64,000 nt of DNA from Nitrosopumilus sp. Lineage in GTDB: Archaea; Thermoproteota; Nitrososphaeria; Nitrososphaerales; Nitrosopumilaceae. Every line of letters begins with the position of its first letter. Within the stretch, counting starts at the first letter, position 1. The stretch covers positions 608,001 through 672,000 of the forward strand of contig OZ244651.1 in assembly GCA_965218695.1 (NCBI GenBank). The letters are read 5' to 3'. The position numbers were made by a program, and so were the translations under genes. The notes under the pieces were generated by a model. The model made no database searches, was not told the DNA's origin, and worked only from the letters and a program-made list of their open reading frames with translations. This document shows positions 15,473-46,321 of this stretch, piece by piece.

Positions 15473-15601
15473 ATGGAATTGATATTCCATTGTCCTGGTT
15501 GCGGCCATTGCATGTCATACGCGAGCCATGAATACGACAGGTTGGAGCGCGACTGCGAGGATTGGGACGTTGGCGGATGTCCGTCATGCGGCAAAAAATA
15601 A
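15473..15601 (+). CDS. 42-aa CPxCG zinc-ribbon micro-protein
   Basis: MELIFHCPGCGHC...GGCPSCGKK; TC-TTATA 27 nt upstream; below ORF-track cutoff. Confidence 0.7.
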   Translation: MELIFHCPGCGHCMSYASHEYDRLERDCEDWDVGGCPSCGKK

Positions 15602-23701: not shown

Positions 23702-23863
23702 TACATGCATAATTCGCGGTACCAATCCACCAACTAATGACGATCCTGTGCGGTGTGACGAATGTGGATTTCAGTGTACTGGTACTGGCCATGAGAACTG
23801 TCATCCAGGCTGATCACAATTCCATTTTTAATTCCCTTTATACCATTTTGGACCAATGCGTAC

Positions 23864-24094
23864 ATGGTAAATTGTGCTATATGCAATAATGCTGTTCAAG
23901 GACGGGACTGGCTGATGTGCAACGATTGCGCTCTCTCGAACAATGTCTGCGTCCTGTGCAAGAACACTATACAGTGGCGCGACGGGCTAGTATGCGACAA
24001 CTGCGCGCGTTCGAAGAACGTCTGTAGTAATTGCGGGAATCATTGGGACGGGGCAAATATTACTGGTAGCCTGGTGTGCGACGACTGCGACTGA
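23864..24094 (+). CDS. 76-aa protein of three tandem double-CxxC repeats
   Basis: CAIC..CNDC / CVLC..CDNC / CSNC..CDDC; CCC-TTTATA 27 nt upstream. Confidence 0.8.
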   Translation: MVNCAICNNAVQGRDWLMCNDCALSNNVCVLCKNTIQWRDGLVCDNCARSKNVCSNCGNHWDGANITGSLVCDDCD

Positions 24095-25965: not shown

Positions 25966-28900
25966 ATGACCGGGCCGCTCATGCTGGTCTCGGCGTCGTA
26001 CGACAGCGCCGACAAGCGCGTCGTGCTCAAGTTCTATGATCCCGCATCGCACAAGATTGTTCTCTGGAAGGACAACACCGGGCACAGACCGTATTGCTAT
26101 TCCAAGCTGTCCGCAGACGAACTGCGCGAAATCAGGAGCATGGACCGCGTGACCGGCATAAGCCGCGTGGTGCTGCATGACCTGGCAAAGGACAAACCCG
26201 TGGGCATGTCAAAGATAACGGCCGCGGATCCGTTTGCCATCATCGGGACGTACGACCAGCCCGGCGTGAAAAACAAGATAGAGGCGTGGGAGGCCGACAT
26301 CCGTTACCACGAGTCGTACCTGTACGACAGGAACCTCATCGTCGGCCGGTATTACAGGATAGAGGACGGGTGCGTCGTGCCGCACTCCATGGAGATATCC
26401 GGCGACGTGCAATCTGCGCTGAAGACGCTGCTGTGGGACAAAATGGACGACGGCAGCGTGGTGGATGCAGACGAGTTCAGGGAGTTCGTCACGTCGTGGG
26501 CCGACCTGCTGAACCAGCCCATCCCGGACATCAGGAGGCTGGCAGTCGACATAGAGGTGGAGTCAGAAGGCGGCAGGATTCCGGATCCCATTATAGCAGA
26601 CAAGAAGATCACCGCCGTCGGGCTCAAGGGAACCGGGCTTGACCGCGTGTTCGTTCTCAGGACGGAAGGCGTGCCGGAGGGCGAAGACGGCCTTGCAGGT
26701 AACGTCGGGGTGGCGTTTTACGACAGCGAAAAAGACATGATACGCGACGCGCTCAGGGTAATGGAATCGTTCCCGTTCGTGCTGACGTACAACGGCGACG
26801 AGTTTGACATGCCGTTTTTGTACAACCGGGCCAAGAGGCTCGGCATCGACGACAAGCAAAACCCGCTGTACATGATGAGGAACTCGGCCACGCTGAAAAA
26901 AGGGGTGCACCTGGACCTGTACCGGGTCATGTCCAACCGCTCGTTTCAGGTGTACGCGTTCAGCCAGGCGTACTCGGACTTTTCGCTTAACAGCGTGTCC
27001 AAGGCGCTTTTGGGCAAGGAGAAAATAGATTACGGGCTGAATTTCGACCAGATGTCACTCTGCCAGACCGCGAACTATTGCTACAACGACTCGCTGCTCA
27101 CGTACGAGCTTACCAGTTTCAACGGCGACATACTGATGAACCTGCTGGTAATCATATCCAGGATCGGCCGCATGCCGATTGACGGCATAGCCCGGATGGG
27201 GGTGTCGCAGTGGATCAAGAGCCTGCTGTATTACGAGCACCGGGTGCGCGGCTGCCTCATACCGAACCGGAAGGACCTGGACGCGCGCTCGCAGGGCGTG
27301 ATATCCGATGCCGTGATCAAGGACAAGAAGTACAAGGGCGGCCTGGTCGTGCAGCCCAAGGAAGGGGTGCATTTCGACGTCGTGGTGATGGACTTTGCCA
27401 GCCTGTATCCGAGCATAATCAAGGTAAGGAACCTGTCGTACGAGACCGTCAGGTGCCCGCACCCGGAGTGCCGCGCCAACGCCATACCGCTGACCAACCA
27501 CTGGGCATGCAAGAAGAGGAACGGCCTGACTGCCATGATAATCGGCTCGCTGCGCGACCTGAGGGTGAACTACTACAAGAGCCTGTCAAGGAACGAGTCG
27601 TTCACCGAAAAGCAGCGGGACCAGTATACCGTGGTGACGCAGGCACTCAAGGTCATACTGAATGCCAGTTACGGCGTGATGGGCGCCGACATATTCCCGC
27701 TGTATTTCCTGCCTGCGGCCGAGGCCACTACTGCCATAGGAAGGCATACCATCCAGGGCAGCATCGAGATTTGCAAGGCACAGGGAGTCGACGTGCTGTA
27801 TGGGGATAGTACGCCCGGGGACACGCCGGTAACATGCGAAAGAAACGGCATTAGGCAAATCATACCGATACGATCTCTGGCACCCAGCACGGTAACACAC
27901 GGCAGGCAGTCACACGCAGCGCTAAAGGTGCTGTCTGATACGGGGTTTGTTGATGTGGCGTATTCATACGTGCACACCGTGAAAAAAACAGGATACAGAA
28001 TAGGGACGAGAAAATCATACGTCGAGGTTACCGATGATCACAGCTTGATAATTGACGGGAAAGAGACGAAACCCAGCCAACTACGAATTGGGGACACAAT
28101 TGACATTTTACCGAACAACATTCGGGTGTTTGACAATGACCGCGTGCTATCAGACGACATGGCATGGCTGTTCGGGTTCTACATATCTGATGGCACGCTT
28201 GTTTGCGAGCGGGGGACCAATATATGGAGAATAGTGAAAAACGATAAGACCAAACTGGAGAAGGCGCAAAAAATAATAGCCAAACACCTAGGGTTCAAAA
28301 CCAAGGTATCACTCTGTCCATCGAGGGACAAACTGCATATGATAACATCTATGGACAAGTCCGTATCTACCATCGCCAAATATTTTGCATACCATTGTTA
28401 TTCCGGCAAGACCAAAATAATACCCGGGTGCATTCTGAATGGCACGAACCGAGTCAAGAACGCGTTTTTGCAGGGGGTGATAGACGGCGACGGACACGTG
28501 GACAAGAAAGACAAGTCAATCACGTTTGGACAAATACACAAGTCCGTGCTGGCAGGATACATCTCAATCATCACTGATTTGGGGCATGATTACTCCTTGA
28601 AGTTCAGGCGCGACAAGCCGAATTTCATATCCGTCCGGATAATCAGGAACAAGCATGACGTCAGGATCAGGCGCGCCAACGCCATAACACTTCTGGAAAA
28701 ATTCATCATAGACGAACCGGTGTATGATTTCTCTACTGCCAATGAGCATTTCCGAGGCGGCCTTGGCAACATTCTACTACACAACACCGACAGCGTCTTT
28801 TTACTGTCTCCGGATGACACACAGGTAAAATCCATAATATCGCAGGCCAAGGCAAAGTTCAAGGTTGATTTGGAGGCCGACAAGGAATACCGCTACTGCG

Positions 28901-29454
28901 TGTTCAGCAACCGCAAGAAGAACTATTTCGGCGTGACGAGGTCAGGAAAGCTGGACGTCAAGGGCCTGACTGGCAAAAAGTCTCACACCCCGCCTTTCAT
29001 CAAACAGGCGTTCAAGGAAATACTCGGCATACTGTCCGGGATCCACACGCCCGACGACTTTGAGGAGGCAAAGAAGAAGATATCGACAAGGATCGCCGAC
29101 TACGGCGGCCGCGTGGTGGCGCGGGAGATACCGCTGCAGGACCTGGCGTTTACTGTCCGGCTGAGCAAGCCGCCTGCCGAATACACCAAGACAATCCCCC
29201 AGCACATCAAGGCCGCGAAACAACTTGACAATGCCGACATGGTGAGGAGCGGCGACCGCATATCGTTTGTCAAGGTCATAGGCAAGATCGGCGTGCGGCC
29301 TGTCGAGAAGGCCAGGCGCGACGAGATCGACACCAGGAAATACATGGCGTTCATGGAGTCCACGCTGGAGCAGATCACGTCGTCGATGGGGCTGGATTTT
29401 GACACCATGCTGCAGAAGCCGAAACAATCAGGCATGGACGAATTTTTCTGGTAA
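25966..29454 (+). CDS. polB: Family B DNA polymerase (PolB1-like) with intein
   Basis: ExoI DIE, ExoII YNGDEFD, ExoIII YCYND, DFASLYPS, KVILNASYG, YGD|TDS, C-terminal PIP box QSGMDEFF. Confidence 0.95.
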   Translation: MTGPLMLVSASYDSADKRVVLKFYDPASHKIVLWKDNTGHRPYCYSKLSADELREIRSMDRVTGISRVVLHDLAKDKPVGMSKITAADPFAIIGTYDQPGVKNKIEAWEADIRYHESYLYDRNLIVGRYYRIEDGCVVPHSMEISGDVQSALKTLLWDKMDDGSVVDADEFREFVTSWADLLNQPIPDIRRLAVDIEVESEGGRIPDPIIADKKITAVGLKGTGLDRVFVLRTEGVPEGEDGLAGNVGVAFYDSEKDMIRDALRVMESFPFVLTYNGDEFDMPFLYNRAKRLGIDDKQNPLYMMRNSATLKKGVHLDLYRVMSNRSFQVYAFSQAYSDFSLNSVSKALLGKEKIDYGLNFDQMSLCQTANYCYNDSLLTYELTSFNGDILMNLLVIISRIGRMPIDGIARMGVSQWIKSLLYYEHRVRGCLIPNRKDLDARSQGVISDAVIKDKKYKGGLVVQPKEGVHFDVVVMDFASLYPSIIKVRNLSYETVRCPHPECRANAIPLTNHWACKKRNGLTAMIIGSLRDLRVNYYKSLSRNESFTEKQRDQYTVVTQALKVILNASYGVMGADIFPLYFLPAAEATTAIGRHTIQGSIEICKAQGVDVLYGDSTPGDTPVTCERNGIRQIIPIRSLAPSTVTHGRQSHAALKVLSDTGFVDVAYSYVHTVKKTGYRIGTRKSYVEVTDDHSLIIDGKETKPSQLRIGDTIDILPNNIRVFDNDRVLSDDMAWLFGFYISDGTLVCERGTNIWRIVKNDKTKLEKAQKIIAKHLGFKTKVSLCPSRDKLHMITSMDKSVSTIAKYFAYHCYSGKTKIIPGCILNGTNRVKNAFLQGVIDGDGHVDKKDKSITFGQIHKSVLAGYISIITDLGHDYSLKFRRDKPNFISVRIIRNKHDVRIRRANAITLLEKFIIDEPVYDFSTANEHFRGGLGNILLHNTDSVFLLSPDDTQVKSIISQAKAKFKVDLEADKEYRYCVFSNRKKNYFGVTRSGKLDVKGLTGKKSHTPPFIKQAFKEILGILSGIHTPDDFEEAKKKISTRIADYGGRVVAREIPLQDLAFTVRLSKPPAEYTKTIPQHIKAAKQLDNADMVRSGDRISFVKVIGKIGVRPVEKARRDEIDTRKYMAFMESTLEQITSSMGLDFDTMLQKPKQSGMDEFFW
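27808..28785 (+). mobile_element. Intein with LAGLIDADG homing endonuclease in PolB (326 aa)
   Basis: Splits YGD|TDS; starts STPGDT, block B VTDDH, FGFYISDG and FLQGVIDGDG, ends LLHN; more AT-rich than the extein. Confidence 0.92.
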
Positions 29455-29595
29455 CGTGTGCACAAGGCTCAGCATCTGTTATCAGTCCAAATCTGTTGTT
29501 CTTGTACAGGCATGAAAACCCCCTGGACTGCTGTCAGTCCAAACAGCCGATGCGAAAAATACATGGTGCTTTTATCATCATGGATCCTTCACCCC

Positions 29596-29769
29596 ATGAG
29601 CCTCTGCCAGTACTGCCGTAACGATACAGACAAGACGCATTTCGGCTGCCGCAGGGAGGCCAACCGGCGCGCCTACAATCCGAACGTCTGCTCGTGCTGC
29701 GGCGGCAACCATAACGACGGCAAGGATCATACAAAATGCATGAAGTGGGCGAATTTTCCGGGCTACTGA
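29596..29769 (+). CDS. 57-aa Cys/His-rich micro-protein
   Basis: MSLCQYC..HFGC...CSCCG...HTKC (two CxxC-x6..9-HxxC units); GC-TTTTAT 26 nt upstream. Confidence 0.7.
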   Translation: MSLCQYCRNDTDKTHFGCRREANRRAYNPNVCSCCGGNHNDGKDHTKCMKWANFPGY

Positions 29770-29816
29770 TCCTGGTCGCAAGTATGCCCTTTTTATCAAT
29801 CAGATCCAATCATTCC

Positions 29817-29891
29817 AGCGGGGTGGGGAAGTCAGGTCATCCCGGGGGGCCCATAACCCCCAGGTCGGCGGTTCGAATCCGTCTCCCGCTA
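29817..29891 (+). tRNA. tRNA-Met(CAT), initiator type
   Basis: Full cloverleaf: AGCGGGG/TCCCGCT with A1:U72, D stem GGGA/TCCC, anticodon stem GGGGG/CCCCC, loop CCCATAA, T loop TTCGAAT; no encoded CCA. Confidence 0.93.
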
Positions 29892-30332
29892 CTCCCACAT
29901 TATGTCAGGCTCTGGCCATTCTTCAACCACGCTGGGCATCCTTTTCATCTCTTTATCCAGGTAATCAAACCAAGACACCTTCAGCTCCTTGAGATCCGTG
30001 ATATCTATCACGATGAATGGTATCTTGGCAAGTTTGTAATCGGCGTTCCGCTTGGCCGTCCTTTTCGCGCCAGGCTTGGTGTGGTGGATCGAGCCGTCCA
30101 GCTCTATGACGTACTTGAGGCTGCCGTGCATGTCACGCACCATTATGTCCGGATGGTGCTGCACCGTGCCTTTCAGGTCTGGTTTTGACAGATCCTTGTA
30201 CACGCCGGTTACGGAATAGTCCCACCTTGAGATCAGGATGAAATGCTCCTTGAGTATCTGCTCGCCTGGTATGTTGTGGACGCCTTTGATGTAGGATATC
30301 AGTGAATGCAGCTGCGCGTCGTCTGTCTCCAT
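29889..30332 (-). CDS. DUF559/Vsr-like PD-(D/E)xK endonuclease
   Basis: HPDIMV...YVIELDGSIHH...RNADY..AKIPFIVI. Confidence 0.7.
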   Translation of the reverse strand: METDDAQLHSLISYIKGVHNIPGEQILKEHFILISRWDYSVTGVYKDLSKPDLKGTVQHHPDIMVRDMHGSLKYVIELDGSIHHTKPGAKRTAKRNADYKLAKIPFIVIDITDLKELKVSWFDYLDKEMKRMPSVVEEWPEPDIMWE

Positions 30333-30368
30333 GACGTGGCTGATTGGTTTGCTATTAAGGAAATGCTG

Positions 30369-30695
30369 TTACCGGCCTAACTTCGCAAGTTCCCGGCCGC
30401 CCAGTATCCTGCACCTGATTCCGCAGTATTTCGCGCCGAACTTGCGGCCGACGATCTCGTCCCCGCACTGCGCACAACGCGTCGGCGCCTCCCCGTGCTT
30501 GTGTTTTCCGCCCTTGTGGCGTGCATAGCACACCGGACCGCAAAACCTGGCGTTGGTCCTCTTGCCATCCAACATGTTCCTGCAGTACTCGCACCTGGGC
30601 TTCAGGCCCTGGCGCAGATCCTCCAAGAATGCTTCGGCGTCGTCTGTGACCATGCCGTTCTTGGCAAACACCTGGCTCATGCAGGCACCTTCCAC
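30369..30695 (-). CDS. Protein with two treble-clef-type zinc fingers
   Basis: CEYC-x11-FCGPVC and CAQC-x11-YCGIRC. Confidence 0.75.
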   Translation of the reverse strand: MEGACMSQVFAKNGMVTDDAEAFLEDLRQGLKPRCEYCRNMLDGKRTNARFCGPVCYARHKGGKHKHGEAPTRCAQCGDEIVGRKFGAKYCGIRCRILGGRELAKLGR

Positions 30696-30884
30696 ACATA
30701 TCTTTTATGCATACTTATAATAAATATTTATAATATTTAAAGATATTGAATATCTGCGACATGAACAGCGGAATATTGCACTCGGAATGTCATCTATCCA
30801 CCAGCGTGGCCATGTCGGCCGACGTTTTCCTCCTGGCATGGCCGCCTAGTTCATGCCCTTATACGCTCCCGGGTTTTTCACTCC

Positions 30885-31040
30885 ATGTCCAAGTGTTATC
30901 TGTGCAGCAGGACCGATGCCAGCAAAAAATGTGACTCGTGTGGCGCAATCGCATGTCCAGACCATTCCAAAACATGCGGCGGCAAGCCTCGCTGCAGTCA
31001 CTGTATCACGATCCATGGCAGCGGCAAGCTGGCCGGCTAG
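30885..31040 (+). CDS. 51-aa zinc-finger micro-protein (family A)
   Basis: MSKCYLCSRTDASKKCDSCGAIACPDHSKTCGGKPRCSHCITIHGSGKLAG; CCC-TTATAC 26 nt upstream. Confidence 0.75.
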   Translation: MSKCYLCSRTDASKKCDSCGAIACPDHSKTCGGKPRCSHCITIHGSGKLAG

Positions 31041-31088
31041 TCCCACCAACCCTTTTTTCTCTTTTTATGCTGAGCGTTGTTTCGTCAC

Positions 31089-31277
31089 ATGGAAAAGTGC
31101 CACATATGCCAAAAAGACGCCGCAGACGACGTGGGATGCACCAAGTGCGGGAAATACACGTGCAGGCGCCACAGGGTAGGATGCGACTCGTGCTGGGACA
31201 TGTTCTGTACGAACCATGGCCGGAAATGCGGCGGTGCCTGGTACTGCACGTACCACGCAGACAAGCACGGCAAGTAG
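31089..31277 (+). CDS. 62-aa zinc-finger micro-protein (family A)
   Basis: Shares CDSC-x4-CxxH-x3-CGG-x3-CxxH with 30885; TC-TTTTTAT 27 nt upstream. Confidence 0.8.
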   Translation: MEKCHICQKDAADDVGCTKCGKYTCRRHRVGCDSCWDMFCTNHGRKCGGAWYCTYHADKHGK

Positions 31278-31344
31278 GATGCCGCCATATCCCATGCATT
31301 TTTTGACGCGCAATGCAGATAAGGTATCCAGACCAATACAACCC

Positions 31345-31488
31345 ATGGCAGAATGCGGACATTGTGGCAAAGAGGCTGCAACCGGACGCGCCTGCGATCA
31401 GTGTTTCCGGGACGGCTGGTACCACGGCTGCGGCAAGTCCAAGCGTGCTGCCGGCAAGATGTTCTGTGATCCATGTCTGGGAAAATAA
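31345..31488 (+). CDS. 47-aa GWC-family double zinc finger (GWY variant)
   Basis: MAECGHC-x9-CDQCFRDGWYHGCG-x10-CDPC. Confidence 0.7.
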   Translation: MAECGHCGKEAATGRACDQCFRDGWYHGCGKSKRAAGKMFCDPCLGK

Positions 31489-31519
31489 CCGCTTATATCA
31501 TATCCAAATCCAGACTCGC

Positions 31520-31666
31520 ATGGAGAAATGTGTCCGCTGCAAGAAAAAACGCCAGGGCGGCGTGCTGAAGGTATGTGATGGTTGCAGGGCCGCCGGATGG
31601 TGTGCTGACTGCGGGCAAACCAAGGCACCGAGCCAAGGCACGTTCTGCGACACATGTGCTCCATAG
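31520..31666 (+). CDS. 48-aa GWC-family double zinc finger
   Basis: MEKCVRC-x11-CDGCRAAGWCADCG-x10-CDTC; TTATAT 27 nt upstream. Confidence 0.8.
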   Translation: MEKCVRCKKKRQGGVLKVCDGCRAAGWCADCGQTKAPSQGTFCDTCAP

Positions 31667-31723
31667 GCTATTCGTAGGCTATTTGTAGATCTGGTGTTTT
31701 TACGATTTTTGAGTTTTGGGTGC

Positions 31724-31864
31724 ATGAGTTTATGTTGGCACTGCCACAAATACCAATACAGCGGCAACAAGCTCTGCAGGAACTGCCGCAAAGAGGGCTG
31801 GTGTGAGTGCTGCGGGCACGAACGCGCCATACGCGGCACGAAGTGGTGCGTAAAGTGCGCGTGA
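31724..31864 (+). CDS. 46-aa GWC-family double zinc finger
   Basis: MSLCWHC-x10-CRNCRKEGWCECCG-x10-CVKC; TTTTTA 27 nt upstream; not in the ORF track. Confidence 0.8.
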   Translation: MSLCWHCHKYQYSGNKLCRNCRKEGWCECCGHERAIRGTKWCVKCA

Positions 31865-31956
31865 ACCAACTTTCCTCCAAAGATCAGGATTTCAAGCCGT
31901 GAAGCAAGTCTGGATGGACGGATTTGCCTTATACGGTTAGCGTACAATGCCATGTG

Positions 31957-32133
31957 ATGGGGGAAATCGGATGTGTTAGATGCGGCGGGCCAATCGGCAC
32001 CAATACCGGCGTCTGGCACGTCTGCAAGGAGTGCTATACGGCCGGATGGTGCTATCGTTGTGGACGGCACAAGATGACTTTGAAGGGTGAATGGTGCAAG
32101 AACTGCAAGAAGCAGGTTTACGGCCGGGTCTAA
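31957..32133 (+). CDS. 58-aa GWC-family double zinc finger
   Basis: CVRC-x13-CKECYTAGWCYRCG-x10-CKNC; CC-TTATAC upstream. Confidence 0.8.
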   Translation: MGEIGCVRCGGPIGTNTGVWHVCKECYTAGWCYRCGRHKMTLKGEWCKNCKKQVYGRV

Positions 32134-32164
32134 AGTCCTTTTATCATTATCATGTCATTTGGAC

Positions 32165-32332
32165 ATGGCCAAGTGCATAAGGTGCAGCAATACTATCACG
32201 AACGGCGGCATGTGGCATATCTGCCACGAATGCTATGCGGCCGGATGGTGCTATGACTGCGGGAAAAACCAGCGGTCCGGCGGCAACGCCTACTGTGCCA
32301 AATGCGGCAAGAGGTATTCGGGCCAAGACTGA
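32165..32332 (+). CDS. 55-aa GWC-family double zinc finger
   Basis: MAKCIRC-x12-CHECYAAGWCYDCG-x10-CAKC; CC-TTTTAT 26 nt upstream. Confidence 0.8.
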   Translation: MAKCIRCSNTITNGGMWHICHECYAAGWCYDCGKNQRSGGNAYCAKCGKRYSGQD

Positions 32333-32407
32333 CCTAATCAAGCCGGCGGTTTTTATCATTTCCATGACTGCCAGACATGGGCATCAGGCGGGTTCCACGA
32401 CAACGAC

Positions 32408-32575
32408 ATGGAAGCCGGGATCATCGAGGACAGGTGTCCCGCATGCGGCGCGTCCATGAAGAGGGTGCGGTGCAACGGGTGCGACGGCGCGGCGATTTGT
32501 TGCCAGAAATGCGGCTACGTCGACAAGTCACACGTCGCGAACAGGCCGGATGCGTTGTACCGTTTTCAGGCATGA
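32408..32575 (+). CDS. 55-aa zinc-ribbon micro-protein, possibly frameshifted from ATG 32377
   Basis: RCPACG...RCNGC...CCQKCGY; the promoter spacing points to ATG 32377, which is one base out of frame. Confidence 0.6.
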   Translation: MEAGIIEDRCPACGASMKRVRCNGCDGAAICCQKCGYVDKSHVANRPDALYRFQA

Positions 32576-32747
32576 ATGCAACCGGGTGCGCCTGAGTACT
32601 GGCTCGTGTACAGTCAGCCCAGTTGCTGGCAGACATGGCAATTACCACTGAATGTGATGAATTTGTCACATTCAGCGGCAATCAGGCAGCCATATCGGAT
32701 TCGGTCCGGATGCGTTGTCAACTGGCACGACTGTCCAAACACCGACC

Positions 32748-33068
32748 TCACGCGGCCGCTTTTTTGACGACGAACTCAAAATATCCCTCGCGGCAATAAT
32801 ACCCGGCACAGCACGTCTCCTCTGGGCAGTTTATGATGCCTATGATCCATATCGGCTTGCCGGCCACGTTAACCACCGTGTGCTTGTCGTTTAGCTCCAC
32901 AGGCGGGCCGCACCTCGGGCACGCCAGCACGAACGTGGCGTAATCCATTTTTCCTTCAGGACCGATCCAGGGCGCGTGCTTCTGTCGCTGCCAGAACGTG
33001 CATTCGCCTGGCTTCGGTTTGGACCATTTTTTGTCGACCAACACAAGGCCCGGTTTCTGTTTTCTCAT
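32748..33068 (-). CDS. Hypothetical Cys-containing protein
   Basis: CPRCG...CPEETCC; CCC-TTTTTAT 27 nt upstream on the minus strand. Confidence 0.65.
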   Translation of the reverse strand: MRKQKPGLVLVDKKWSKPKPGECTFWQRQKHAPWIGPEGKMDYATFVLACPRCGPPVELNDKHTVVNVAGKPIWIIGIINCPEETCCAGYYCREGYFEFVVKKAAA

Positions 33069-33149
33069 GGAACAACGGGCTGAATTCTATAAAAAGGGAG
33101 TTATAGCGTGCCCGCTATACTGCTTTTATGCTGAACGGTTCTTGGCAGC

Positions 33150-33371
33150 GTGGGGATGCACGTCAAGAAGATAAAGAAGAAACAGTACCTGTATTTCACT
33201 GAGATGCAGAACGGCAAAAAAGTGGAGACGTACTGCGGCTCGGTCGAGAATCCGGCCTCCAGGCTTAAGGCGCTGTCGCTGGAAAAGAAGAGACTGGAAA
33301 GGAAACAACAGGAGGATCTGGCCAACCTGGAGGCCATCCAACTGCAGTTGGGGCCGATGACCGTTTCCTAG
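33150..33371 (+). CDS. Small DNA-binding protein resembling the SSV1-type integrase N-terminal beta domain, plus coiled coil
   Basis: KKIKKKQYLYF..MQNGKKVETYCG pattern followed by a heptad-rich helix. Confidence 0.6.
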   Translation: MGMHVKKIKKKQYLYFTEMQNGKKVETYCGSVENPASRLKALSLEKKRLERKQQEDLANLEAIQLQLGPMTVS

Positions 33372-33392
33372 CCTCTTTTAAGTAGGGCTGCC

Positions 33393-34199
33393 ATGGAATG
33401 CGTGTCCGAGTATTACACGGAGGGCGAAGAGTCCGGCGGCAAAAAAAAGTACGTCATATTGGGCGCGGTTGGAGCTGCAGGCGTGGTTGCGGCATTGCTG
33501 GTGTTTTCCGGAATTTTGGATATCATGGTGAATGATGAGCCAGTCGGGGTGCCGGAGATTGACGAAGACAGGCTGTCCGTGTTTACCGACCTACCTGAGA
33601 TAATGGACGGGTTGGAGGTGCCGGAGATTGAGGTTGTCCCAGTACAGGAGGAGGAAGAGGGTGACGGCGACACCGGACTGGTTCCTGCAGAAACAGAGGT
33701 GATTGAGGACGCGCAGGAAGGCGACGTCCAAAGCCTTGCGGAACTGGCGATGGACCTGCTTGTTGACACGCAGGAGGAATACGGATTTGTCAACGAGCCT
33801 GCCGACGACAGCGGCCTGACCATGGAGGACATACTGGGCGCGGATCCGCCGGACCCGGAGGACGTGGCAGAACCCGGCGCCGACATACTTGAAAAGGTCG
33901 AGGAGTTCAAGAAGATACACGCAGAGCCGGTCCCTGATGGCGCGACGTCAGGCACCGTGACGTGGGTGCTTACAGGAAACACCATCAACATAAACGAAGT
34001 AATTATACACCTGGCCGGGGTGCGCGCAGGCGGTGTGGGCGACAGGGACGATCTGATGCGGGAATGCCCGCGCGACACGCTGGTGCTGTACACGCTTGAC
34101 GGGAGGACGGATTCAGACGGCAATCTGTATGGAAAGGCCTGGTGCTACGGGTATACCCCGACCCAACCAGAGACCAGCGTAAATAATATCCTCAAATGA
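33393..34199 (+). CDS. Membrane-anchored acidic protein with a degenerate thermonuclease (SNase)-like domain
   Basis: TM helix, long acidic linker, GTVTWVLTGNTI..IHLAGV..CP..DSDGNLYG..WC..SVN; GTG 33402 is a likely alternative start. Confidence 0.7.
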   Translation: MECVSEYYTEGEESGGKKKYVILGAVGAAGVVAALLVFSGILDIMVNDEPVGVPEIDEDRLSVFTDLPEIMDGLEVPEIEVVPVQEEEEGDGDTGLVPAETEVIEDAQEGDVQSLAELAMDLLVDTQEEYGFVNEPADDSGLTMEDILGADPPDPEDVAEPGADILEKVEEFKKIHAEPVPDGATSGTVTWVLTGNTININEVIIHLAGVRAGGVGDRDDLMRECPRDTLVLYTLDGRTDSDGNLYGKAWCYGYTPTQPETSVNNILK

Positions 34200-34292
34200 T
34201 TGCCCGCGCGACACGCCGCGCGCACAGTCTTGGCATGTTTGGACTTGCGGCCAAGACTTTGCTCCTTTTACGTGCCACAAGGTAGCAGTACG

Positions 34293-34472
34293 ATGTCAAA
34301 AGACGACAGGGAGAGGCTGGTCGAACTGCAAAACTTCCTAGCCGGCCTTCAAGAAAAGATTAACAAGTACAGCGGGGACCCGACGAAAAAGAAGGACCTT
34401 TACCTTGCCAAGAGTATGGCGCGAAAATGCAGAAACGAGATCAACGAATTGCACAAAAAACTTGGATACTAA
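34293..34472 (+). CDS. Small coiled-coil protein
   Basis: 59 aa; CC-TTTTAC 27 nt upstream. Confidence 0.65.
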   Translation: MSKDDRERLVELQNFLAGLQEKINKYSGDPTKKKDLYLAKSMARKCRNEINELHKKLGY

Positions 34473-34645
34473 TCTTCACACACATTGATCCCGTGCTCGT
34501 ACTCGATGGCGTACAAGCCGTATGACAGGCAGTCCAGCATGACGGCTATCCTTTTCCTGTGTTCGGCAGTGTCCGGATCTGGATCCTTTTCCCCGGACTG
34601 CCGCATGTATTCGGCGCCGCGCAGCAGCTCTTTACAGTAATTCAT
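34469..34645 (-). CDS. Small hypothetical protein
   Basis: MNYCKELLRGAEY... downstream of tmk on the same strand. Confidence 0.45.
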   Translation of the reverse strand: MNYCKELLRGAEYMRQSGEKDPDPDTAEHRKRIAVMLDCLSYGLYAIEYEHGINVCED

Positions 34646-34686
34646 GACATGGTAATGGCAAAGTGGGATAAATGGATTCTGCGTGA

Positions 34687-35244
34687 TCAACCCAGAATGT
34701 TCATTATTCTGGCATGGACGTCTTCTGTCGTGCCCGTCGCGTCCACGACGCGCCATCTTCTCTTTTCTGCCATGGAACGGTACACCTCACTTACCCTGCT
34801 GAGGAAGGCAAGATCGGACTCAAACACGTCGCGGTCCTTTTTTCTCCGCCTGAACGACTCTTCTGGCGGGATGTCCAGCAGTATGACGATATCGGCCTTG
34901 GGCATGCCGTCGTCCAGGTTTTCCAGCCACGCCTTGGGCATGCCGTTTACCATACCGTACACGAGGTTGGACTGGACGTAACGGTTCATTACGAGCACAT
35001 CGTGTTTTGCATGCCTGATGCCGTGCACGGCCTCCCAGTGGTTCGCGGTCATCAGGCAGTGCAGTACCTGCGGCGCAACGTAGCCGCCTGCCAGGATTTC
35101 ACCGATGACGCCACCGATCCGCGTAGTATAATCTGGAAAGTCAAACCGCCTGACTGTCTTCCCCGCGTCTTTCAGGGCGCGCTCCAGCATGATCGACTGC
35201 GTCTTCTTGCCTGCCTGGTCCACTCCCTCGATTACGATGATCAA
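34687..35244 (-). CDS. tmk: Thymidylate (dTMP) kinase
   Basis: IVIEGVDQAGKKTQ P-loop, FPDYTT, MNRYVQSNLVYG, PKADIVILLD, FESD; TTG start inferred from CC-TTTTA 28 nt upstream. Confidence 0.92.
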   Translation of the reverse strand: MIIVIEGVDQAGKKTQSIMLERALKDAGKTVRRFDFPDYTTRIGGVIGEILAGGYVAPQVLHCLMTANHWEAVHGIRHAKHDVLVMNRYVQSNLVYGMVNGMPKAWLENLDDGMPKADIVILLDIPPEESFRRRKKDRDVFESDLAFLSRVSEVYRSMAEKRRWRVVDATGTTEDVHARIMNILG

Positions 35245-35304
35245 CGGGATTGATGGAATGGTTGGCATAAAAGGAAACCCAACTCCTTGTACCAAAATGC
35301 CGCT

Positions 35305-35553
35305 ATGAAAAACAAATGCAACTGCAGGCCGTGCTCTGACACGTCTGGCAAAAACAAAACGCGCGCGTGCGGCATGTGCGGCGGGACGATGAAGAACGTC
35401 CAGGTCGTGTGTTACAACGAAAACTCCAACGTCATAGGGCAGCAATGGGTTACCAAGAGAGGCGATCCACGGACGTCGAACCACGGTTGGTCACAAATGC
35501 GGCGGCGAATGCATGGTCTAGCATGCAAGAATTCTCCCTTTTTACGTGGATGA
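35305..35553 (+). CDS. Small Cys-rich hypothetical protein
   Basis: KCNCRPC...ACGMCG. Confidence 0.5.
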   Translation: MKNKCNCRPCSDTSGKNKTRACGMCGGTMKNVQVVCYNENSNVIGQQWVTKRGDPRTSNHGWSQMRRRMHGLACKNSPFLRG

Positions 35554-36074: not shown

Positions 36075-38052
36075 ATGAGTGAATGCGCCTGCCACACCCC
36101 GACGCCGGTGTTGGACGAGGTAGCAGGAGAAACCGTCTGTTCCAAATGCGCGCGCGTGCTGGATGATTCAATGGAACAACCATGCAAGAACCAGGGCCAG
36201 AACCACATGGTGCTTGGAAACCGCGTGTCATCCACGAAAATACAGGGAAACGCCAAGATGCGGCGCGCCAGCAGATGTCCAACAGGGTCGACCAAAAAGG
36301 AATGGACACGAGACATAATCCGTAATTAGAAATTGTACATATTTTCCTATACTGTGTAGGTTTTTTGACTCCTATCAGGTTGCTTCCCGGACTAGGAGAA
36401 CCCTGAGGTTGGCAAATCCGCAGACGATGTCATTGACGGTGTCGTATTTTTTCAGGCGGTTTCGGTAGACACCGCTCATTATGCGAAACCGTTTGACCCT
36501 GCGGATGGCGTGCTCCACATACACCCGTGCCTTTGAGTGCTTTTTGTTGAATTCCTTCTGCTCGGGGGACAATTCTGCGCCTTTTTGCTTCTTGTACGGC
36601 ACTACTGCATCCCGGTCAGGAAATTCTTTGTTGATCCCCTGGTATCCGTTGTCCAGGATCTCTCTGACTTTGATCCTTTCCTTGTCCTTGCTCCCGTCCT
36701 TGCGTGGAAGGTTGTCAGGGAATGTCGGGTGTTTCTTTTTGAATACTGCAAAGTCGTGGATCCTGCCCGGGGAATGCCGGGTCTTGTGAATGATGAGGCC
36801 ATCTGTGGCCGACGTGTACTGGATCTTGGACGTGTGCCTGTGTGCCTTGCCCGAGTAGTGGGACCGTTCCATGTCCTTGCGTCCGGGACGTTGTATCTGC
36901 TGCTCTGAGGCATCAATCAGGGCAGTCAGGCCCGGAATGATCTCCTCAAGATCGTCAAGCGTCTTGGTGGCCTTGATGTTGGCGTAGATCTTTGACGGAA
37001 GCGGAACGCACTGCCGGATCGACGGCTCCAGTGCCCCCATGCTGCGGGACACGCTAGCCTGGCCCATCTGAAACACCATGGCAAGAAGATCCTGCGTAGC
37101 GTATGTCCTGTAATAAAACAGGACCAGAAGAAACCTGTTTTTCAGATCCAGTTTCCACCTGCGTCCGGCACCAATGCCGCGCACCCTGCTTCTTTTGGCG
37201 AGTCGCTTTTGCTCTGCCTTGGGGTATTTTTTTGCCAGCCGCCCTGCCACCAAATTAAATTCGGAGACTGTCAGTCCAGTGCACCGGATGAACAGTTTGG
37301 GCTTTTTTGCTAATTTGTCGTATAATGACATGCTTTGACATTGGCAATCAGAATAAAACACGGCTGACGTATAGTTTTGATCATCGGGCAAGTTCGAATT
37401 GACATGCAATTCCATGCAGTCAGCCAGATTTGTCCTGCAATGCGTCCAATCTCGTGATTATGCCCAATTACGGATGATGTCTCCGGACTACATGATAAAA
37501 TCATGCTGCAACAAACTCTGGATTCCACAGACGGTAGCGGACCGCGCCATGATCATATTTGACAAGTTCAGGAAGAGTCTTGGCGGCGGAAACCCGGCCA
37601 ACCATACAGCGGCTGTCGTATACATGGCGTGTAGGGAGCGCGGCGTGGCGCGCAGCATGAAGGAGATATTTTCGGCACTTGACGCAGATTCCAAGAAGGC
37701 CCGCCGCGCGTATTACAAGCTGCACAAATCAATGGATGCTGTCTTGCCGGTCCCAGATGCGGCCGGTTTTGCCACGCGTTTGGCATCAGACCTCAACTTA
37801 CCAGAAAAGACGGCGCGCAGGGCGTTAAAGATACTGGAACGGTTGAACGATGCGGGCTTGACGACCGGACACGGTCCAACCATACTGGCCGCGTACGCCA
37901 CGTATGCCGCATTGAACCGGACAGAGGGCGTCACGCAAGGAATGATAGTCAAGGCGGCCGGGATATCCGAAGCTGTGCTGCGTGAGCTGGGCGTGGCAGT
38001 CAGGGCCGATGAGTTTGCAGTCAGGATGAACGCGACAGGTTCAGTCAGGTGA
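36075..38052 (+). pseudogene. tfb: Divergent transcription initiation factor TFB (TFIIB), interrupted by an IS5-family element
   Basis: Zinc ribbon CAC...GETVCSKCARVL; cyclin repeats AAVVYMACR..GVARSMKEI and TQGMIVKAAGISEAVLR; removing 36310-37483 restores a 267-aa frame. Confidence 0.88.
36310..37483 (-). mobile_element. IS5-family (DDE_Tnp_4, ISL2-like) insertion sequence
   Basis: TIRs GAGACAT(A/C)ATCCGTAATT; transposase with IDASEQ.I.RP, YSGK..H, DNGYQG, RVYVEHAIRRVK. Confidence 0.92.
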
Positions 38053-38248: not shown

Positions 38249-38587
38249 ATGTTAGTGTCCGGCATAGTCATAATCGTCCTGGTCGTGGCAGGCGCGGCAG
38301 TGATGTTCTTCTTGACAGAATCAAACAACCAGACCATAGCAGCGGGTACCATAATCGCCATACATGACAACGAGCGCGTCAAGGAAGACGTGGACATCGT
38401 GTGGGGCGGCCAGGACTTGAAGATGCACAACGCCGGGCCTGAGACGGAGATACTTGAATACCGCGTGCTTGATGATGACGGCACCCTACTTCGCGTCTGT
38501 ACGGTCGAACATGAGGTGGGAGCGTCCGTGAAAGAGACGGTCAATACGGCGGCATTCGACGAATGCTGGCAGGAGTTTTTGACATGA
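38249..38587 (+). CDS. Secreted/membrane protein with N-terminal hydrophobic helix (pilin-associated-like)
   Basis: MLVSGIVIIVLVVAGAAVMFF followed by ERVKED..HNAG..EYRVLDDDG. Confidence 0.65.
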   Translation: MLVSGIVIIVLVVAGAAVMFFLTESNNQTIAAGTIIAIHDNERVKEDVDIVWGGQDLKMHNAGPETEILEYRVLDDDGTLLRVCTVEHEVGASVKETVNTAAFDECWQEFLT

Positions 38588-41286
38588 GGACAAAACTGGC
38601 TGCAGTCGCATTGGTATTGGCAATAGCCGCCGCAGCATACGCGGGATTCGCAGAGGACGCGTTTGCCAAACAGCTCCAGGTGGTTACGTCGCGCGGCAAC
38701 GTCTTTACCGTAAAGGTTGACATACCGACCAACAGCACGCATACTGTCCTGGTAATCAACAGCACGCAAATAATCAACAGCACGCAGGTGATCAACAACA
38801 CCAACCCCGGGATAACCTTCCCGATGGAAATCGTCACGAAGAACGCAGAGGGCCACATCGTCTACGGGAACGGCACGAGTGGTGCAGAAAAGCCGCTGGA
38901 CCCGTACACGTTCCCAGGCGAGTTTGAGTTTGCAGCAGTCGTGCTGGACGCGGACGCCAAGAATACGATGCCCATACCCAAACTCCTGGCAAAATACGAG
39001 ATGGTTAATGACGATTCGCTGAACTGGATAGAGGACACCGACACCGGCGACAACATCCTGGTTCCGCTGGACGTGGATCCGGCAACATACGGGAACGGGT
39101 GGAAAGTGGAAGGCGATTGGACAGTACTTGACAACACTCCAGGGGAAAGCCGCAAGACACAGGCCAGCATAGACCTCCCGCTAAACGAGCAGCTCACGAT
39201 GAAGGGCGACATTTCAAGCGGCATGACGGTCCAAATCATATCGGTCGTACGGCCTTTCAACCCCAACACCGTCAGTTATTACAGTCAATACGTATCGTCT
39301 TCTTCTTCGTCTTTGGAAAAAAAGTATTTCGAGTATGACGGCCCGACATTCAGTTATTTTGGCAGTAAATACATACCCAAACAATGTACATGGTGGCCAA
39401 ACAGTTTGACATACCAGGGATTCAAGACCAACTATCCGAGTCCCGGACAGGGACTCGGGCCAAACCACATCGTCTATAATGGATACGGACCTACCAACGT
39501 GGCCACTAGCGCGGGCTGCGCAATACAACCACATATAACCACATACATAAATGGACCCGGGTCGAATATCGGATTCGACGGCGACCGATGGACAGGTTAT
39601 ACAATATACGGAGAGATGTTGAGAAGCACCAGCGGGCTTACCCTGTATCCAAACGTTTACGCTCTTGGCTGCCAGTCGTCAACGCACATAAGCGTAACGA
39701 CAAGTTATAGGGAAGGCGGAAGTAGCGGCATACACACCGTGAATGTGCCGTACACTAAAACGCCTACTGTGACTTGTGTCAGTGAACACGGATACCAAAA
39801 AATCACGAGAATTGACATCCCAGGCGAGTCCATACGAAAGAAAATAGAACGTGTTGGTTATGGTTCTGCTCCCACCTTGACGTTTTACGTGCCTGTGACT
39901 GCATCTGTCCGGATCGACATACCGCAAATACCGCCCACAATACAGGTGCTGCACTCGTTCAGCGGGCAAGACATTAGCCATCCTTTCACTATGCAGTCGT
40001 ACAGCGGAAACCTGTATCTCAGGACGGTCGGCGGTGACGCCACGTCGACGGCACAGATCAAGGTGTTTGAGGGAGAGGAGATCCCGCCGGCATTCATAGT
40101 TACGAACATGCCAGAGAATGCGCCGTACAGGATAACGGCCGACGGCATCACCATAATATCCGGCCTGACGTCGAGCGCAGGCGGCATAGAAGTCACTCCT
40201 GCAGACATGGATTTTGATTTCTTTGAGGGCAAGAATCTTGAACTCACGATATGGCCCGACTCCCTGTCCAGACGCGGAGGCAGCAGCGATGCCGTGATGT
40301 TTGACGCATACAACAAAGAAACCAAGGACTTTCGGTGGCACGTTCCAATCATATACGTGGCCGAATCCATGCTGCAGGTAAGCATAGATCAAGACGGCAT
40401 GGACATTGCCGGAGTCATATTGGAAGGCGGGTCTGACATCAGTTTTGATGGGCGCCAGGGGTTGTACAATGACGGGGACGAGTTGCTTGTCCCGCTGTAC
40501 CCGGATGCCAATGCGATTGCAATCAGGGTCAACGGGGAATGGGCAGACGGCATCCTGGCAGATATCCAGCAGTTTCCGCATTCTGTAAGAATGACAGAGG
40601 CCGAAAACTCCGCGACCAAATACGCTTTCAGCAATGACCTGGGATTCACGGTGGCGCGCGCGTCTGACAGGATCGCCGCGTTTGCCAACAGCACCGGCGA
40701 CATGCAGATCCAATTCGTCAATGCCAAGGCGTCCGGAAGCGCGGAATTCCCGTTTGACTCCTATTACTATGGAAACTTTACCCCGCCCGGAGCGCCTGAC
40801 ACGGAGGAGTGTTTCGTGTATGACAGGTGCGGTGTATGGGTGGACAGTGCCACGCATGCAGACCCGACCAGCGTCAGTTGGGGCCCGATAACGCAGTGGG
40901 TAATAGACAACAATCCGGCGGGGGTGCAGCAGGTGATGGCAGCACAGGGGCCGCTCACGGTATACGTCAATGCGTACGTAAACGGCGAATGGGTCCAAGG
41001 CCAGACGATATTTGAAAGCACGGACGTCACTGTCGTGCCCGGCGATTACTTGGACAGGCACCTCGTATACCAGTACAACGGCGGCCTGGAATACGGCATG
41101 GAAGACGACGATGCAACCATGCGCGTGCCGGTCCAATCAGGCGACTTTGTGGAGTTTGTGGTGAGCTCCAGAACAATGGCGGCCTCGACTCCGGTGTATG
41201 CAGGCAGCGGCACTTCAGCAGACGTATGGTGGGGAAACAGCACGTCGCGAATCCACAGCGGCCTCATGCAAGTCAGCATGCCGTGA
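38584..41286 (+). CDS. Large secreted beta-rich surface protein (~900 aa)
   Basis: Signal peptide MRTKLAAVALVLAIAAAAYA; ATGA overlap with the upstream gene; repeated INSTQ sequons. Confidence 0.8.
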   Translation: MRTKLAAVALVLAIAAAAYAGFAEDAFAKQLQVVTSRGNVFTVKVDIPTNSTHTVLVINSTQIINSTQVINNTNPGITFPMEIVTKNAEGHIVYGNGTSGAEKPLDPYTFPGEFEFAAVVLDADAKNTMPIPKLLAKYEMVNDDSLNWIEDTDTGDNILVPLDVDPATYGNGWKVEGDWTVLDNTPGESRKTQASIDLPLNEQLTMKGDISSGMTVQIISVVRPFNPNTVSYYSQYVSSSSSSLEKKYFEYDGPTFSYFGSKYIPKQCTWWPNSLTYQGFKTNYPSPGQGLGPNHIVYNGYGPTNVATSAGCAIQPHITTYINGPGSNIGFDGDRWTGYTIYGEMLRSTSGLTLYPNVYALGCQSSTHISVTTSYREGGSSGIHTVNVPYTKTPTVTCVSEHGYQKITRIDIPGESIRKKIERVGYGSAPTLTFYVPVTASVRIDIPQIPPTIQVLHSFSGQDISHPFTMQSYSGNLYLRTVGGDATSTAQIKVFEGEEIPPAFIVTNMPENAPYRITADGITIISGLTSSAGGIEVTPADMDFDFFEGKNLELTIWPDSLSRRGGSSDAVMFDAYNKETKDFRWHVPIIYVAESMLQVSIDQDGMDIAGVILEGGSDISFDGRQGLYNDGDELLVPLYPDANAIAIRVNGEWADGILADIQQFPHSVRMTEAENSATKYAFSNDLGFTVARASDRIAAFANSTGDMQIQFVNAKASGSAEFPFDSYYYGNFTPPGAPDTEECFVYDRCGVWVDSATHADPTSVSWGPITQWVIDNNPAGVQQVMAAQGPLTVYVNAYVNGEWVQGQTIFESTDVTVVPGDYLDRHLVYQYNGGLEYGMEDDDATMRVPVQSGDFVEFVVSSRTMAASTPVYAGSGTSADVWWGNSTSRIHSGLMQVSMP

Positions 41287-46174: not shown

Positions 46175-46321
46175 TCATTTGAGAAAGCAGTATTTGCACT
46201 GCGATGCGTATCCGGCCTGCCTGTTCTTGCCGCAGTCGTCGCACCACCCGTTGCCTATGCATGACTCACATACGGTCACGTTACTCTCACACCGATCCAT
46301 TCTGCAATGATTGCACATCAT
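46175..46321 (-). CDS. 48-aa GWC-family double zinc finger (isolated copy)
   Basis: MMCNHC-x11-CESCIGNGWCDDCG-x10-CKYC; CCC-TTATA 27 nt upstream. Confidence 0.78.
   Translation of the reverse strand: MMCNHCRMDRCESNVTVCESCIGNGWCDDCGKNRQAGYASQCKYCFLK

Follow-up and report, generated by a model that had tools for sequence, protein, structure and literature searches.

The 64,000-nucleotide (nt) window analysed here (C1:608001-672000, where C1 is contig 1, GenBank OZ244651.1, of a Nitrosopumilus sp. assembly of 2.63 Mb in 9 contigs, 99.99% complete) carries a tandem array of eight same-strand open reading frames (ORFs) of 46-62 amino acids (aa) between positions 30885 and 32575 on the plus strand. 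The array most likely encodes small proteins of two rare families with putative zinc-binding sites. One of these, which we call the GWC family, reads as two consecutive zinc ribbons, and the sole relative that we can recognise for it is the C-terminal zinc module of the eukaryotic protein CRIPT, a link that is weak for the array members themselves. Our preferred reading, to which we assign a probability of about 0.55, is that the array consists of independent, mostly leaderless genes for fast-turnover intracellular zinc micro-proteins that bind macromolecules, with expression, zinc binding and the binding partner all predicted.

Architecture of the array

All eight ORFs were present within the 1.7 kb at the starts given by the first-pass annotation of this DNA. 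Genes 1 (30885..31040, +; 51 aa, 8 Cys and 3 His) and 2 (31089..31277, +; 62 aa, 10 Cys and 5 His) share one scaffold. Genes 3 (31345..31488, +; 47 aa), 4 (31520..31666, +; 48 aa), 5 (31724..31864, +; 46 aa), 6 (31957..32133, +; 58 aa) and 7 (32165..32332, +; 55 aa) make up the GWC family in the array. Gene 8 (32408..32575, +; 55 aa, 7 Cys) encodes a singleton zinc-ribbon-like protein for which no genomic paralogue was found at E<0.03. Cysteine accounts for 13-20% of the residues in the array proteins, and each of the eight is basic, the excess of K+R over D+E ranging from 2 to 7. When Cys-rich small ORFs were defined as those of 30-100 aa containing six or more Cys and three or more CxxC/H motifs, the genome held 81 distinct examples. 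Nine of them fall in the 1.7 kb of the array (the eight genes and one antisense by-product), compared with 0.05 expected, and 28 of the 81 lie between 500 and 700 kb on contig 1. Gene 2 is already annotated as a protein in a public collection, from this genome alone.

The five GWC-type proteins, encoded from 31345 to 32165, aligned over their full length with 37-42% identity. The alignment reproduced the proposed scaffold CxxC-x(9-13)-CxxC-x3-GW(C/Y)xxCG-x10-CxxC, including the GWY variant in the ORF at 31345, and contained 12 invariant columns (M1, C4, C7, G14, C19, C22, G26, W27, C31, G32, C43 and C46). The alignment shows four CxxC pairs with spacers of x9-13, x5 and x11, which make up two similar units (CxxC-x9-13-CxxC, then CxxC-x11-CxxC) with x3-G-W between them. 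Four of the five array members, and most of the 11 family members, keep all eight Cys; in gene 3 the fifth Cys is replaced (GWY, not GWC). From this spacing we read the GWC proteins as two consecutive zinc ribbons, with zinc binding putative. Structure prediction, which had been proposed as a check, gave an AlphaFold2 model of gene 4 from the 11-sequence alignment with a mean pLDDT (predicted local distance difference test) score of 88. The idea of a fixed scaffold with variable loops is supported by these results. The first-pass annotation spoke of six GWC members; the array itself has five, and a sixth was found elsewhere in the window, at 46175..46321 on the minus strand, as a 48-aa gene with its own TATA-like box.

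The second scaffold that had been proposed for the ORFs at 30885 and 31089 also held. Genes 1 and 2 have 17 invariant columns in common, including CDSC-x4-CxxH-x3-CGG. The scaffold of gene 1, CxxC-x8-CDSC-x4-CxxH-x3-CGG-x3-CxxC, was aligned with gene 2 and with a paralogue at C1:760722, and gene 2 carries one additional CxxC-x4-CxxH unit relative to gene 1. These three copies, all in this genome, constitute the gene 1/2 family.

Promoters, codon usage and selection

We scored as TATA-like the motifs TT[AT]TA or TTTA[TC] starting 24-32 nt before the ATG. Across 1,455 long ORFs of the genome, the motif peaked at -31..-27 of the first ATG, with 23-37 occurrences per position over a background of ~5. 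A sharp peak 27-31 nt before the ATG is the signature that leaderless transcripts would be expected to leave. In the array, a TATA-like box lies 26-28 nt before the ATG of six of the eight ORFs, namely gene 1 (TTATAC, 30859-30864, +; 26 nt 5' of the ATG), gene 2 (TTTTTATG, 31062-31069, +; 27 nt 5' of the ATG), gene 4 (TTATATC, 31493-31499, +), gene 5 (TTTTTACG, 31697-31704, +), gene 6 (TTATACG, 31929-31935, +) and gene 7 (TTTTATCA, 32139-32146, +). Genome-wide, 652 of 30,343 ATG-started ORFs of 30-100 aa (2.15%) have the motif at -32..-24. This agrees with the earlier claims that most of the ORFs have a TATA box of their own and that the ORF at 31345 lacks a clear one; its box is weak and a TATA-like motif is absent at -32..-24. 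The other exception is the ORF at 32408. The description of the array as separate promoter-plus-gene units is likewise supported. Runs of T5 or T6 follow within ~35 nt 3' of the stop codons of genes 1, 2, 4 and 7, with the stop of gene 2 followed by a T6 run.

The region upstream of gene 8 (32350..32383, +) contains a TATA-like box (32350-32359) located 27 nt before an ATG at 32377 that is out of frame with the gene. A direct repeat (D5) pairs 32139-32171, the promoter and start of gene 7, with 32351-32383 upstream of gene 8, at 73% identity over 33 nt. Because this upstream segment resembles the gene 7 promoter and start, it may be the remnant of a duplicated unit. Scored by genome codon usage, gene 8 reached +9.2 bits and the overlapping frame from 32377 reached -29.9 bits. 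A 190-aa antisense ORF (31498-32070), of the type that an ORF track would prefer, scored -43 bits.

Selection was estimated from the ratio of nonsynonymous to synonymous substitution rates (dN/dS), another check raised in the first-pass annotation. The three cross-species pairs gave values of 0.085-0.34, from small counts (S of ~25-30 sites per pair). The gene at 46175-46321 (-) of the window gave 0.085 against its orthologue in a second genome, G002, with 4 aa changes; the family member at C1:1127041 gave 0.34 against G002; and gene 4 gave ~0.10 against an orthologue of 60% identity in genome G018. A copy of gene 4 was also found in a relative in run X5, with 89% nucleotide identity, on a 15.6-kb contig with unrelated flanks. 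Among the changes listed for this copy, six of nine are synonymous, and the others are K>R, G>D and K>R. With promoter motifs and purifying selection both observed, we regard the array ORFs as real genes that are predicted to produce protein.

Relatives of the GWC family and turnover between species

Profile searches of the same genome recovered, besides the gene at 46175-46321, a member at C1:1127041 on the minus strand and further forms of the family. Three of these, putatively leaderless, are of a CRIPT-like subtype with G-V/I-C in place of GWC. The first is a three-ribbon relative in the window (23864..24094, +; 76 aa) with a TATA-like box, the second a Cys-rich micro-gene of the G-I-C form at C1:508994-509152, and the third its neighbour, a further Cys-rich micro-gene at C1:509233-509451. 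Decayed pieces of the family were present at C1:1668492 and C1:599579.

Outside this genome the GWC family is rare and near-unique to a few species. Any member at all was found in 4 of 151 genomes of the genus including this one (3 of the 150 others), and in none of 16 genomes from other families of the order. A collection of 5.8 billion clusters returned 3 matches, and a hidden Markov model search of 1.84 billion representatives returned 111 at E<=1e-3. Inspection of 12 sequences identified seven small full-length look-alikes of 54-92 aa (P0004, P0007, P0023, P0058, P0066, P0099 and P0002), and the addition of P0001 and P0003 brings these to nine. The metagenomic look-alikes of gene 6 are P0004 (58 aa) and P0007. 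The seven small relatives that were looked up belong to clusters of 1-3 members. Most of the remaining matches in the big library are proteins of ~110-750 aa that match in 2-7 stretches, mainly to the second half of the profile, and in the sequences inspected these stretches are G-x-CxxCG...CxxC ribbon repeats. When 13 of the longer matches were scanned with Pfam, 11 gave sub-threshold DZR/DZR_2 matches, one had no match and P0029 had helix-turn-helix-type matches alone. Pattern scans, which detect close relatives only, found no relative of gene 6 in JGI metagenome contigs and, in IMG/VR viral contigs, none of either gene 6 or gene 4.

The array genes are accessory, with fast gain and loss, and are not core genes. 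Genome G002, from a sister species, retains the sequence on the right-hand side of the array (window 33073-34729, 77-81% identity), and the end of the polymerase gene that precedes the array here lies 65 kb away there. Immediately ahead of the retained sequence in G002, 56 nt left over from the spacer between genes 2 and 3 (89%) and 58 nt from the start of gene 8 (75%) stand only 13 nt apart, so genes 3-7 are missing from that genome; the gene 8 remnant contains an in-frame stop. Genes 6 and 7 have 79% nucleotide identity over 58 nt (repeat D1), and are the most recent duplicates. Low-depth contigs from three other studies carry pieces identical to the window. On one relative's contig, the last 75 nt of gene 3 are its sole surviving part, with Cys44 changed to Tyr. 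The suggestion that gene 3, with its GWY motif and missing TATA box, may be decaying is plausible.

Comparison with CRIPT and other zinc-binding proteins

None of the eight ORFs reached a Pfam cut-off, the best scores being 16.5 bits for NMD3 (cut-off 24.9) and 15.9 bits for DZR_2 (cut-off 27). The NCBIfam scan of the micro-ORFs gave nothing above cut-off, and gene 8 matched TIGR04165, a family of Cys-rich peptides, below threshold (E=0.04, 14.2 bits with a cut-off of 60). No PHROG family matched the four micro-ORFs scanned (genes 1, 2, 4 and 8) at E<=0.01, and PADLOC, a set of defence rather than anti-defence models, matched none of the eight ORFs and neither of two neighbours at E<=0.1. The best ESM Atlas scores, including a lead to PF07754, were 0.88, under the 0.9 line. 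In the PDB, no sequence matched gene 8 with E below 0.11. The statement in the first-pass annotation that the family was not recognised therefore stands as far as curated families go, none of which match, and can be narrowed in that the GWC proteins read as double zinc ribbons nearest to the CRIPT zinc module.

The similarity to CRIPT was seen in several comparisons. The Pfam family PF10235 (Cript; cut-off 25.5 bits) matched the locus at C1:508985 (29.3 bits) and the metagenomic proteins P0002 (28.0 bits) and P0003 (29.7 bits), all of them G-I/V-C forms, and reached 28.9 bits at window 23858-24046 when summed over two stretches. These matches cover profile positions 42-81 of 90 only, in proteins of 46-76 aa, and are not full-length. 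When the 11-member profile was compared with 177,635 PDB sequences, the top match was CRIPT (7dvq_0, E=0.0024), with residues 3-35 of the profile aligned to residues 57-90 of CRIPT. The same chain was also the best structural match of the gene 4 model, at weak scores. In an hhalign comparison, the G-I-C group and the five GWC genes of the array were linked with 94.7% probability. The stretch that matches CRIPT is short (~35 residues) and Cys-dominated. Among 401 genomes of the order, only the present one had PF10235 above its cut-off, and none of 14 control genomes did. Weak PF10235 matches in two other genomes of the order (G243 and G296) were rejected on inspection as unrelated generic ribbons, and none of 19 big-library matches scanned with Pfam was CRIPT.

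CRIPT and the GWC/G-I-C proteins have in common the core CxxC-x11-CxxC-x5/6-G-(I/W)-CxxCG(K), and CRIPT and the GWC proteins are both small, zinc-stabilised (as predicted for GWC) and start with M-x-(x)-CxxC. CRIPT is a eukaryotic protein of ~100 aa, whereas the GWC proteins are archaeal and 46-58 aa long. CRIPT also has a PDZ-binding tail that has no counterpart in the GWC proteins. In the account of one review (PMC10676203, on PDB 7DVQ), CRIPT holds zinc at two centres, Cys3/6/83/86 and Cys58/61/73/76, and stabilises the U12 small nuclear ribonucleoprotein of the human minor spliceosome. GWC Cys4/7/19/22 align with the Cys58/61/73/76 centre, and the GWC knuckle corresponds to Cys83/86. The partner of this knuckle should differ between the two proteins. 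The G-I-CxxC knuckle of CRIPT is partnered by Cys3 and Cys6 at the N-terminus, whereas the order of the GWC sequence would require the C-terminal CxxC as partner, in a permuted arrangement.

Other zinc-binding proteins resemble the array products in part. Similar to the GWC proteins, DZR (PF12773) and DZR_2 (PF18912) domains contain two successive CxxC...CxxC ribbons in ~45-55 residues, and these two families are the commonest sub-threshold Pfam matches of the array members and of the longer multi-repeat proteins that were inspected. Their cut-offs (27.3 and 27 bits) were not reached by gene 7 (15.9 bits), gene 6 (15.3 bits) or the others (12-13 bits). An invariant G-W ahead of the third knuckle and constant x3 and x10 spacers set the GWC family apart. 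The haloarchaeal C(P)XCG zinc-finger micro-proteins, such as HVO_2753, HVO_0758 and Brz, are also archaeal, shorter than 70 aa and built on CxxC(G) knuckles. C(P)XCG is a motif class and not a homology family, and the array falls within it, since genes 3, 6 and 7 have two CxxCG motifs each and genes 4 and 5 have one CxxCG with three other CxxC motifs. Entries of the haloarchaeal class appeared among the weak PDB matches of the profile (8q5b at E=0.73 and 9fhl at E=7), and PF07754, the HVO_2753-like zinc-binding pocket, had no match at E<=1 in the eight ORFs. The haloarchaeal proteins come from a different phylum and have no significant sequence relation to the array. Their genes are reported to be dispersed singletons, unlike this tandem array of paralogues. 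In Haloferax volcanii the reported number of predicted zinc-finger micro-proteins is 43-49, and several show regulatory or adaptive phenotypes, with links to stress adaptation, biofilm formation and swarming.

Genes 1 and 2 bear a likeness to FYVE, PHD and B-box fingers. Over the stretch CxxC-x8-CxSCG-x3-C-x2-H they align with the Vps27 FYVE domain, which was the best PDB match of the family and is borderline (E=0.0065, 19.9 bits, 31 residues). Pfam gave weak matches to an ANCHR-like B-box and to AN1 and no FYVE match. All of these are below the curated cut-offs, in a family that is so far known solely from this genome.

Proposed role and alternative explanations

In the reading that we prefer, each of the eight units would give its own transcript, mostly leaderless, with a TATA box ~27 nt before the ATG of a 46-62 codon ORF. 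Each product would be a small basic cytoplasmic protein that carries structural zinc. In the GWC proteins (gene 4 numbering), Cys4, 7, 19 and 22 would form the first site and Cys28, 31, 43 and 46 the second, the invariant Gly-Trp may pack between the two ribbons, and the variable hairpins of 9-13 and 10 residues would provide the exposed surface. Genes 1 and 2 would encode a different finger type, resembling cross-brace fingers (FYVE, B-box), and gene 8 a single ribbon-like protein. The proteins could then serve as intracellular zinc-stabilised binding modules for nucleic acid, a ribonucleoprotein or a protein complex, a role that CRIPT and the haloarchaeal micro-proteins suggest purely by analogy.

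Several results weigh against this reading. The summed codon score of the eight ORFs is +10.8 bits over 422 codons, or 0.026 per codon compared with 0.37 for long genes, a low value that is due in part to the Cys-rich composition. Expression of the array as leaderless units is a prediction. The absence of the family from 147 of the 151 genomes of the genus shows that the genes can be dispensed with and would also fit selfish or decaying DNA. Zinc-thiolate sites would offset part of the K/R excess, each Zn(Cys)4 being net negative, and the true charge of the proteins would be lower than the residue counts imply. The model of the gene 1 family was poor, with a pLDDT of 56.8. The structural and profile links to CRIPT are also weak for the array itself. 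PF10235 is absent from the Pfam matches of the array ORFs at E<=1, and it gives 7.5 and 8.2 bits for two dispersed family members, L006 and L011. In a VIA comparison of the gene 4 model with 48,161 chains, CRIPT was the sole chain with Z of at least 2, at a weak Z of 3.1 with a root-mean-square deviation of 3.0 over 38 residues. CRIPT (chain 0 of 7DVQ) was again the top row in Foldseek, non-significantly (E=2.1, template modelling score 0.47).

We considered whether the array might instead serve metal buffering or storage, with tandem copies raising the dose of metallothionein-like sponges for zinc or cadmium. The high Cys content would suit this function, and both the tandem amplification and the concentration of Cys-rich ORFs at 500-700 kb fit a dosage effect. 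The GWC proteins, however, retain 37-42% identity and the conserved non-Cys residues G14, G26, W27 and G32, and purifying selection was measured in all three pairs, gene 4 included, which argues for specific surfaces and not for thiolate in bulk. The CxxC pairs are regular and have the spacing of structural sites; metallothioneins typically have CxC and CC clusters. We judge metal buffering to be unlikely.

A second alternative is that these are CRIPT-like and FYVE/B-box-like fingers, taken from or aimed at a eukaryotic host, that act on host proteins after release. The best matches of both families, though borderline, are eukaryotic (CRIPT and the Vps27 FYVE domain), and the distribution of PF10235 in the order and in the control genomes implies that it is not a general archaeal trait. 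Set against this, no signal peptide or secretion system was seen, the guanine plus cytosine (GC) content is ordinary, the similarity is limited to the ~35 Cys-dominated residues, and CRIPT was not among the 19 inspected big-library matches. Eukaryotic mimicry seems quite improbable.

The first-pass annotation had suggested anti-defence or host-takeover proteins, which would make the array cargo of a mobile element or provirus. Its position 1 kb from a tRNA-Met gene, in a stretch rich in insertion sequences (two DDE transposases and a fragment), is consistent with such an origin, as are the differences in content between species and the match of a neighbouring 108-aa ORF to three PHROG families. 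The scanned neighbours, however, include no integrase, capsid, terminase or defence gene, the 3' end of the tRNA is not repeated, neither IMG/VR scan found a viral relative, the GC content is ordinary, and the paralogues are scattered over the chromosome. This proposal did not hold up well, and we consider it decidedly doubtful.

The suggestion of secreted disulfide peptides was not supported either, as the proteins start with M-x-x-C without a hydrophobic leader and space their paired CxxC motifs as zinc knuckles do. Precursors of modified or secreted Cys-rich peptides (the ribosomally synthesised and post-translationally modified class) would account for several small Cys-rich genes in tandem and for the sub-threshold TIGR04165 match of gene 8. 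They are very improbable here, with no radical-SAM, cyclase, protease or transporter gene among the scanned neighbours, no leader/core architecture, promoters of their own for most genes rather than an operon with a maturase, and no maturase seen at the inspected loci. The notion that these are chance ORFs, or that the antisense ORF at 31498-32070 is the true gene, draws on their shortness, their low summed codon score and the fact that the genes are known from sequence alone, and is largely refuted by the nine Cys-rich ORFs where 0.05 were expected, the TATA boxes at the usual distance in six of eight, dN/dS well below 1, relatives in other genomes and metagenomes and the -43 bits of the antisense frame, which leaves it with hardly any probability.

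Archaeal zinc-ribbon micro-proteins as a kind are already known. What appears to be new is the GWC family, its arrangement as tandem but separate promoter-plus-gene units, and the CRIPT-like core. The genes are well supported, their binding function is putative, and the homology to CRIPT is thin. A search of open-access literature listings found no paper on archaeal CRIPT-like proteins or on Cys-rich micro-gene arrays in this archaeal group. As a speculation that we think rather unlikely to be correct, the GWC and G-I-C proteins may be free-standing archaeal relatives of the CRIPT zinc core, which has so far been treated as eukaryote-specific. CRIPT could have arisen from a double ribbon of this kind in prokaryotes through relocation of one knuckle to the N-terminal end, or a eukaryotic module could have been captured and multiplied by a host-associated archaeon, and the array would then be a set of tiny zinc 'staples', each loop variant for a different ribonucleoprotein or protein target. 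If this link is true, the family offers a prokaryotic handle on the origin of the zinc module of CRIPT, a protein of the eukaryotic spliceosome and synapse; if it is false, the family is still a new compact scaffold with two putative zinc sites in 46 residues and naturally varied loops. Small zinc-finger proteins are systematically under-represented in the output of gene callers and in family databases. The eight genes in 1.7 kb with readable promoters form a clean test bed for leaderless micro-gene expression in archaea of the ammonia-oxidiser type.

Genomic setting

The GC content of the array region (0.536-0.553) is like that of the rest of the window. Upstream on the plus strand lie two intein-containing genes, a ribonucleotide reductase large subunit (16518-20210) and a family-B DNA polymerase (25966-29454), each intein with a LAGLIDADG homing-endonuclease domain. 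They are followed by the tRNA-Met (29817-29892), 1 kb from the array. An Rfam scan of 29000-34000 found this tRNA only, and no att-like repeat of its 3' end was found in the window. Downstream of the array are a thymidylate kinase gene (34687-35484, -), a DDE_Tnp_4 transposase gene (36375-37415, -) and a second DDE transposase gene (41918-43018); a transposase fragment lies at 23165-23737. Family scans of the neighbours gave no integrase, virus hallmark (capsid, terminase), defence, radical-SAM or transporter family, and no cyclase or protease gene.

Two small Cys-bearing ORFs flank the array on the minus strand. The first, of 108 aa (30369-30695), is divergently oriented, with an AT-rich spacer (30700-30760) between it and the array. 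It contains two CxxC...(F/Y)CGxxC units, has a sub-threshold match to the VATC treble-clef (E=3.3e-4) and matches three PHROG families of unknown function (best E=1e-4). The second, of 106 aa, lies at 32748-33068, and together with the array the two bring the number of putative zinc-finger genes to ten in 2.7 kb. Neither a 268-aa ORF (33393-34199, +), which has ~81% nucleotide identity in G002, nor a 907-aa ORF (38563-41286, +) matched Pfam, PHROG or PADLOC. An ORF with a TFIIB repeat (37399-38052, TTG start, 217 aa) adjoins and slightly overlaps the DDE_Tnp_4 gene and may be a TFB gene cut by the insertion of this element.

Other Cys-rich ORFs were noted at a distance from the array. A Cys-codon triplet repeat at C1:409767-409922 (-) produces a poly-Cys ORF that is probably a microsatellite and not a gene. 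A 65-aa ORF at C1:809323-809520 (-), unrelated to the array families, is preceded by a TATA-like box and contains CxxC, CxC, three further CxxC motifs and HKH. Within the window, a 42-aa ORF at 15473-15601 (+; C1:623473-623601) has CPGCG...CPSCGKK knuckles and a TATA-like box upstream.

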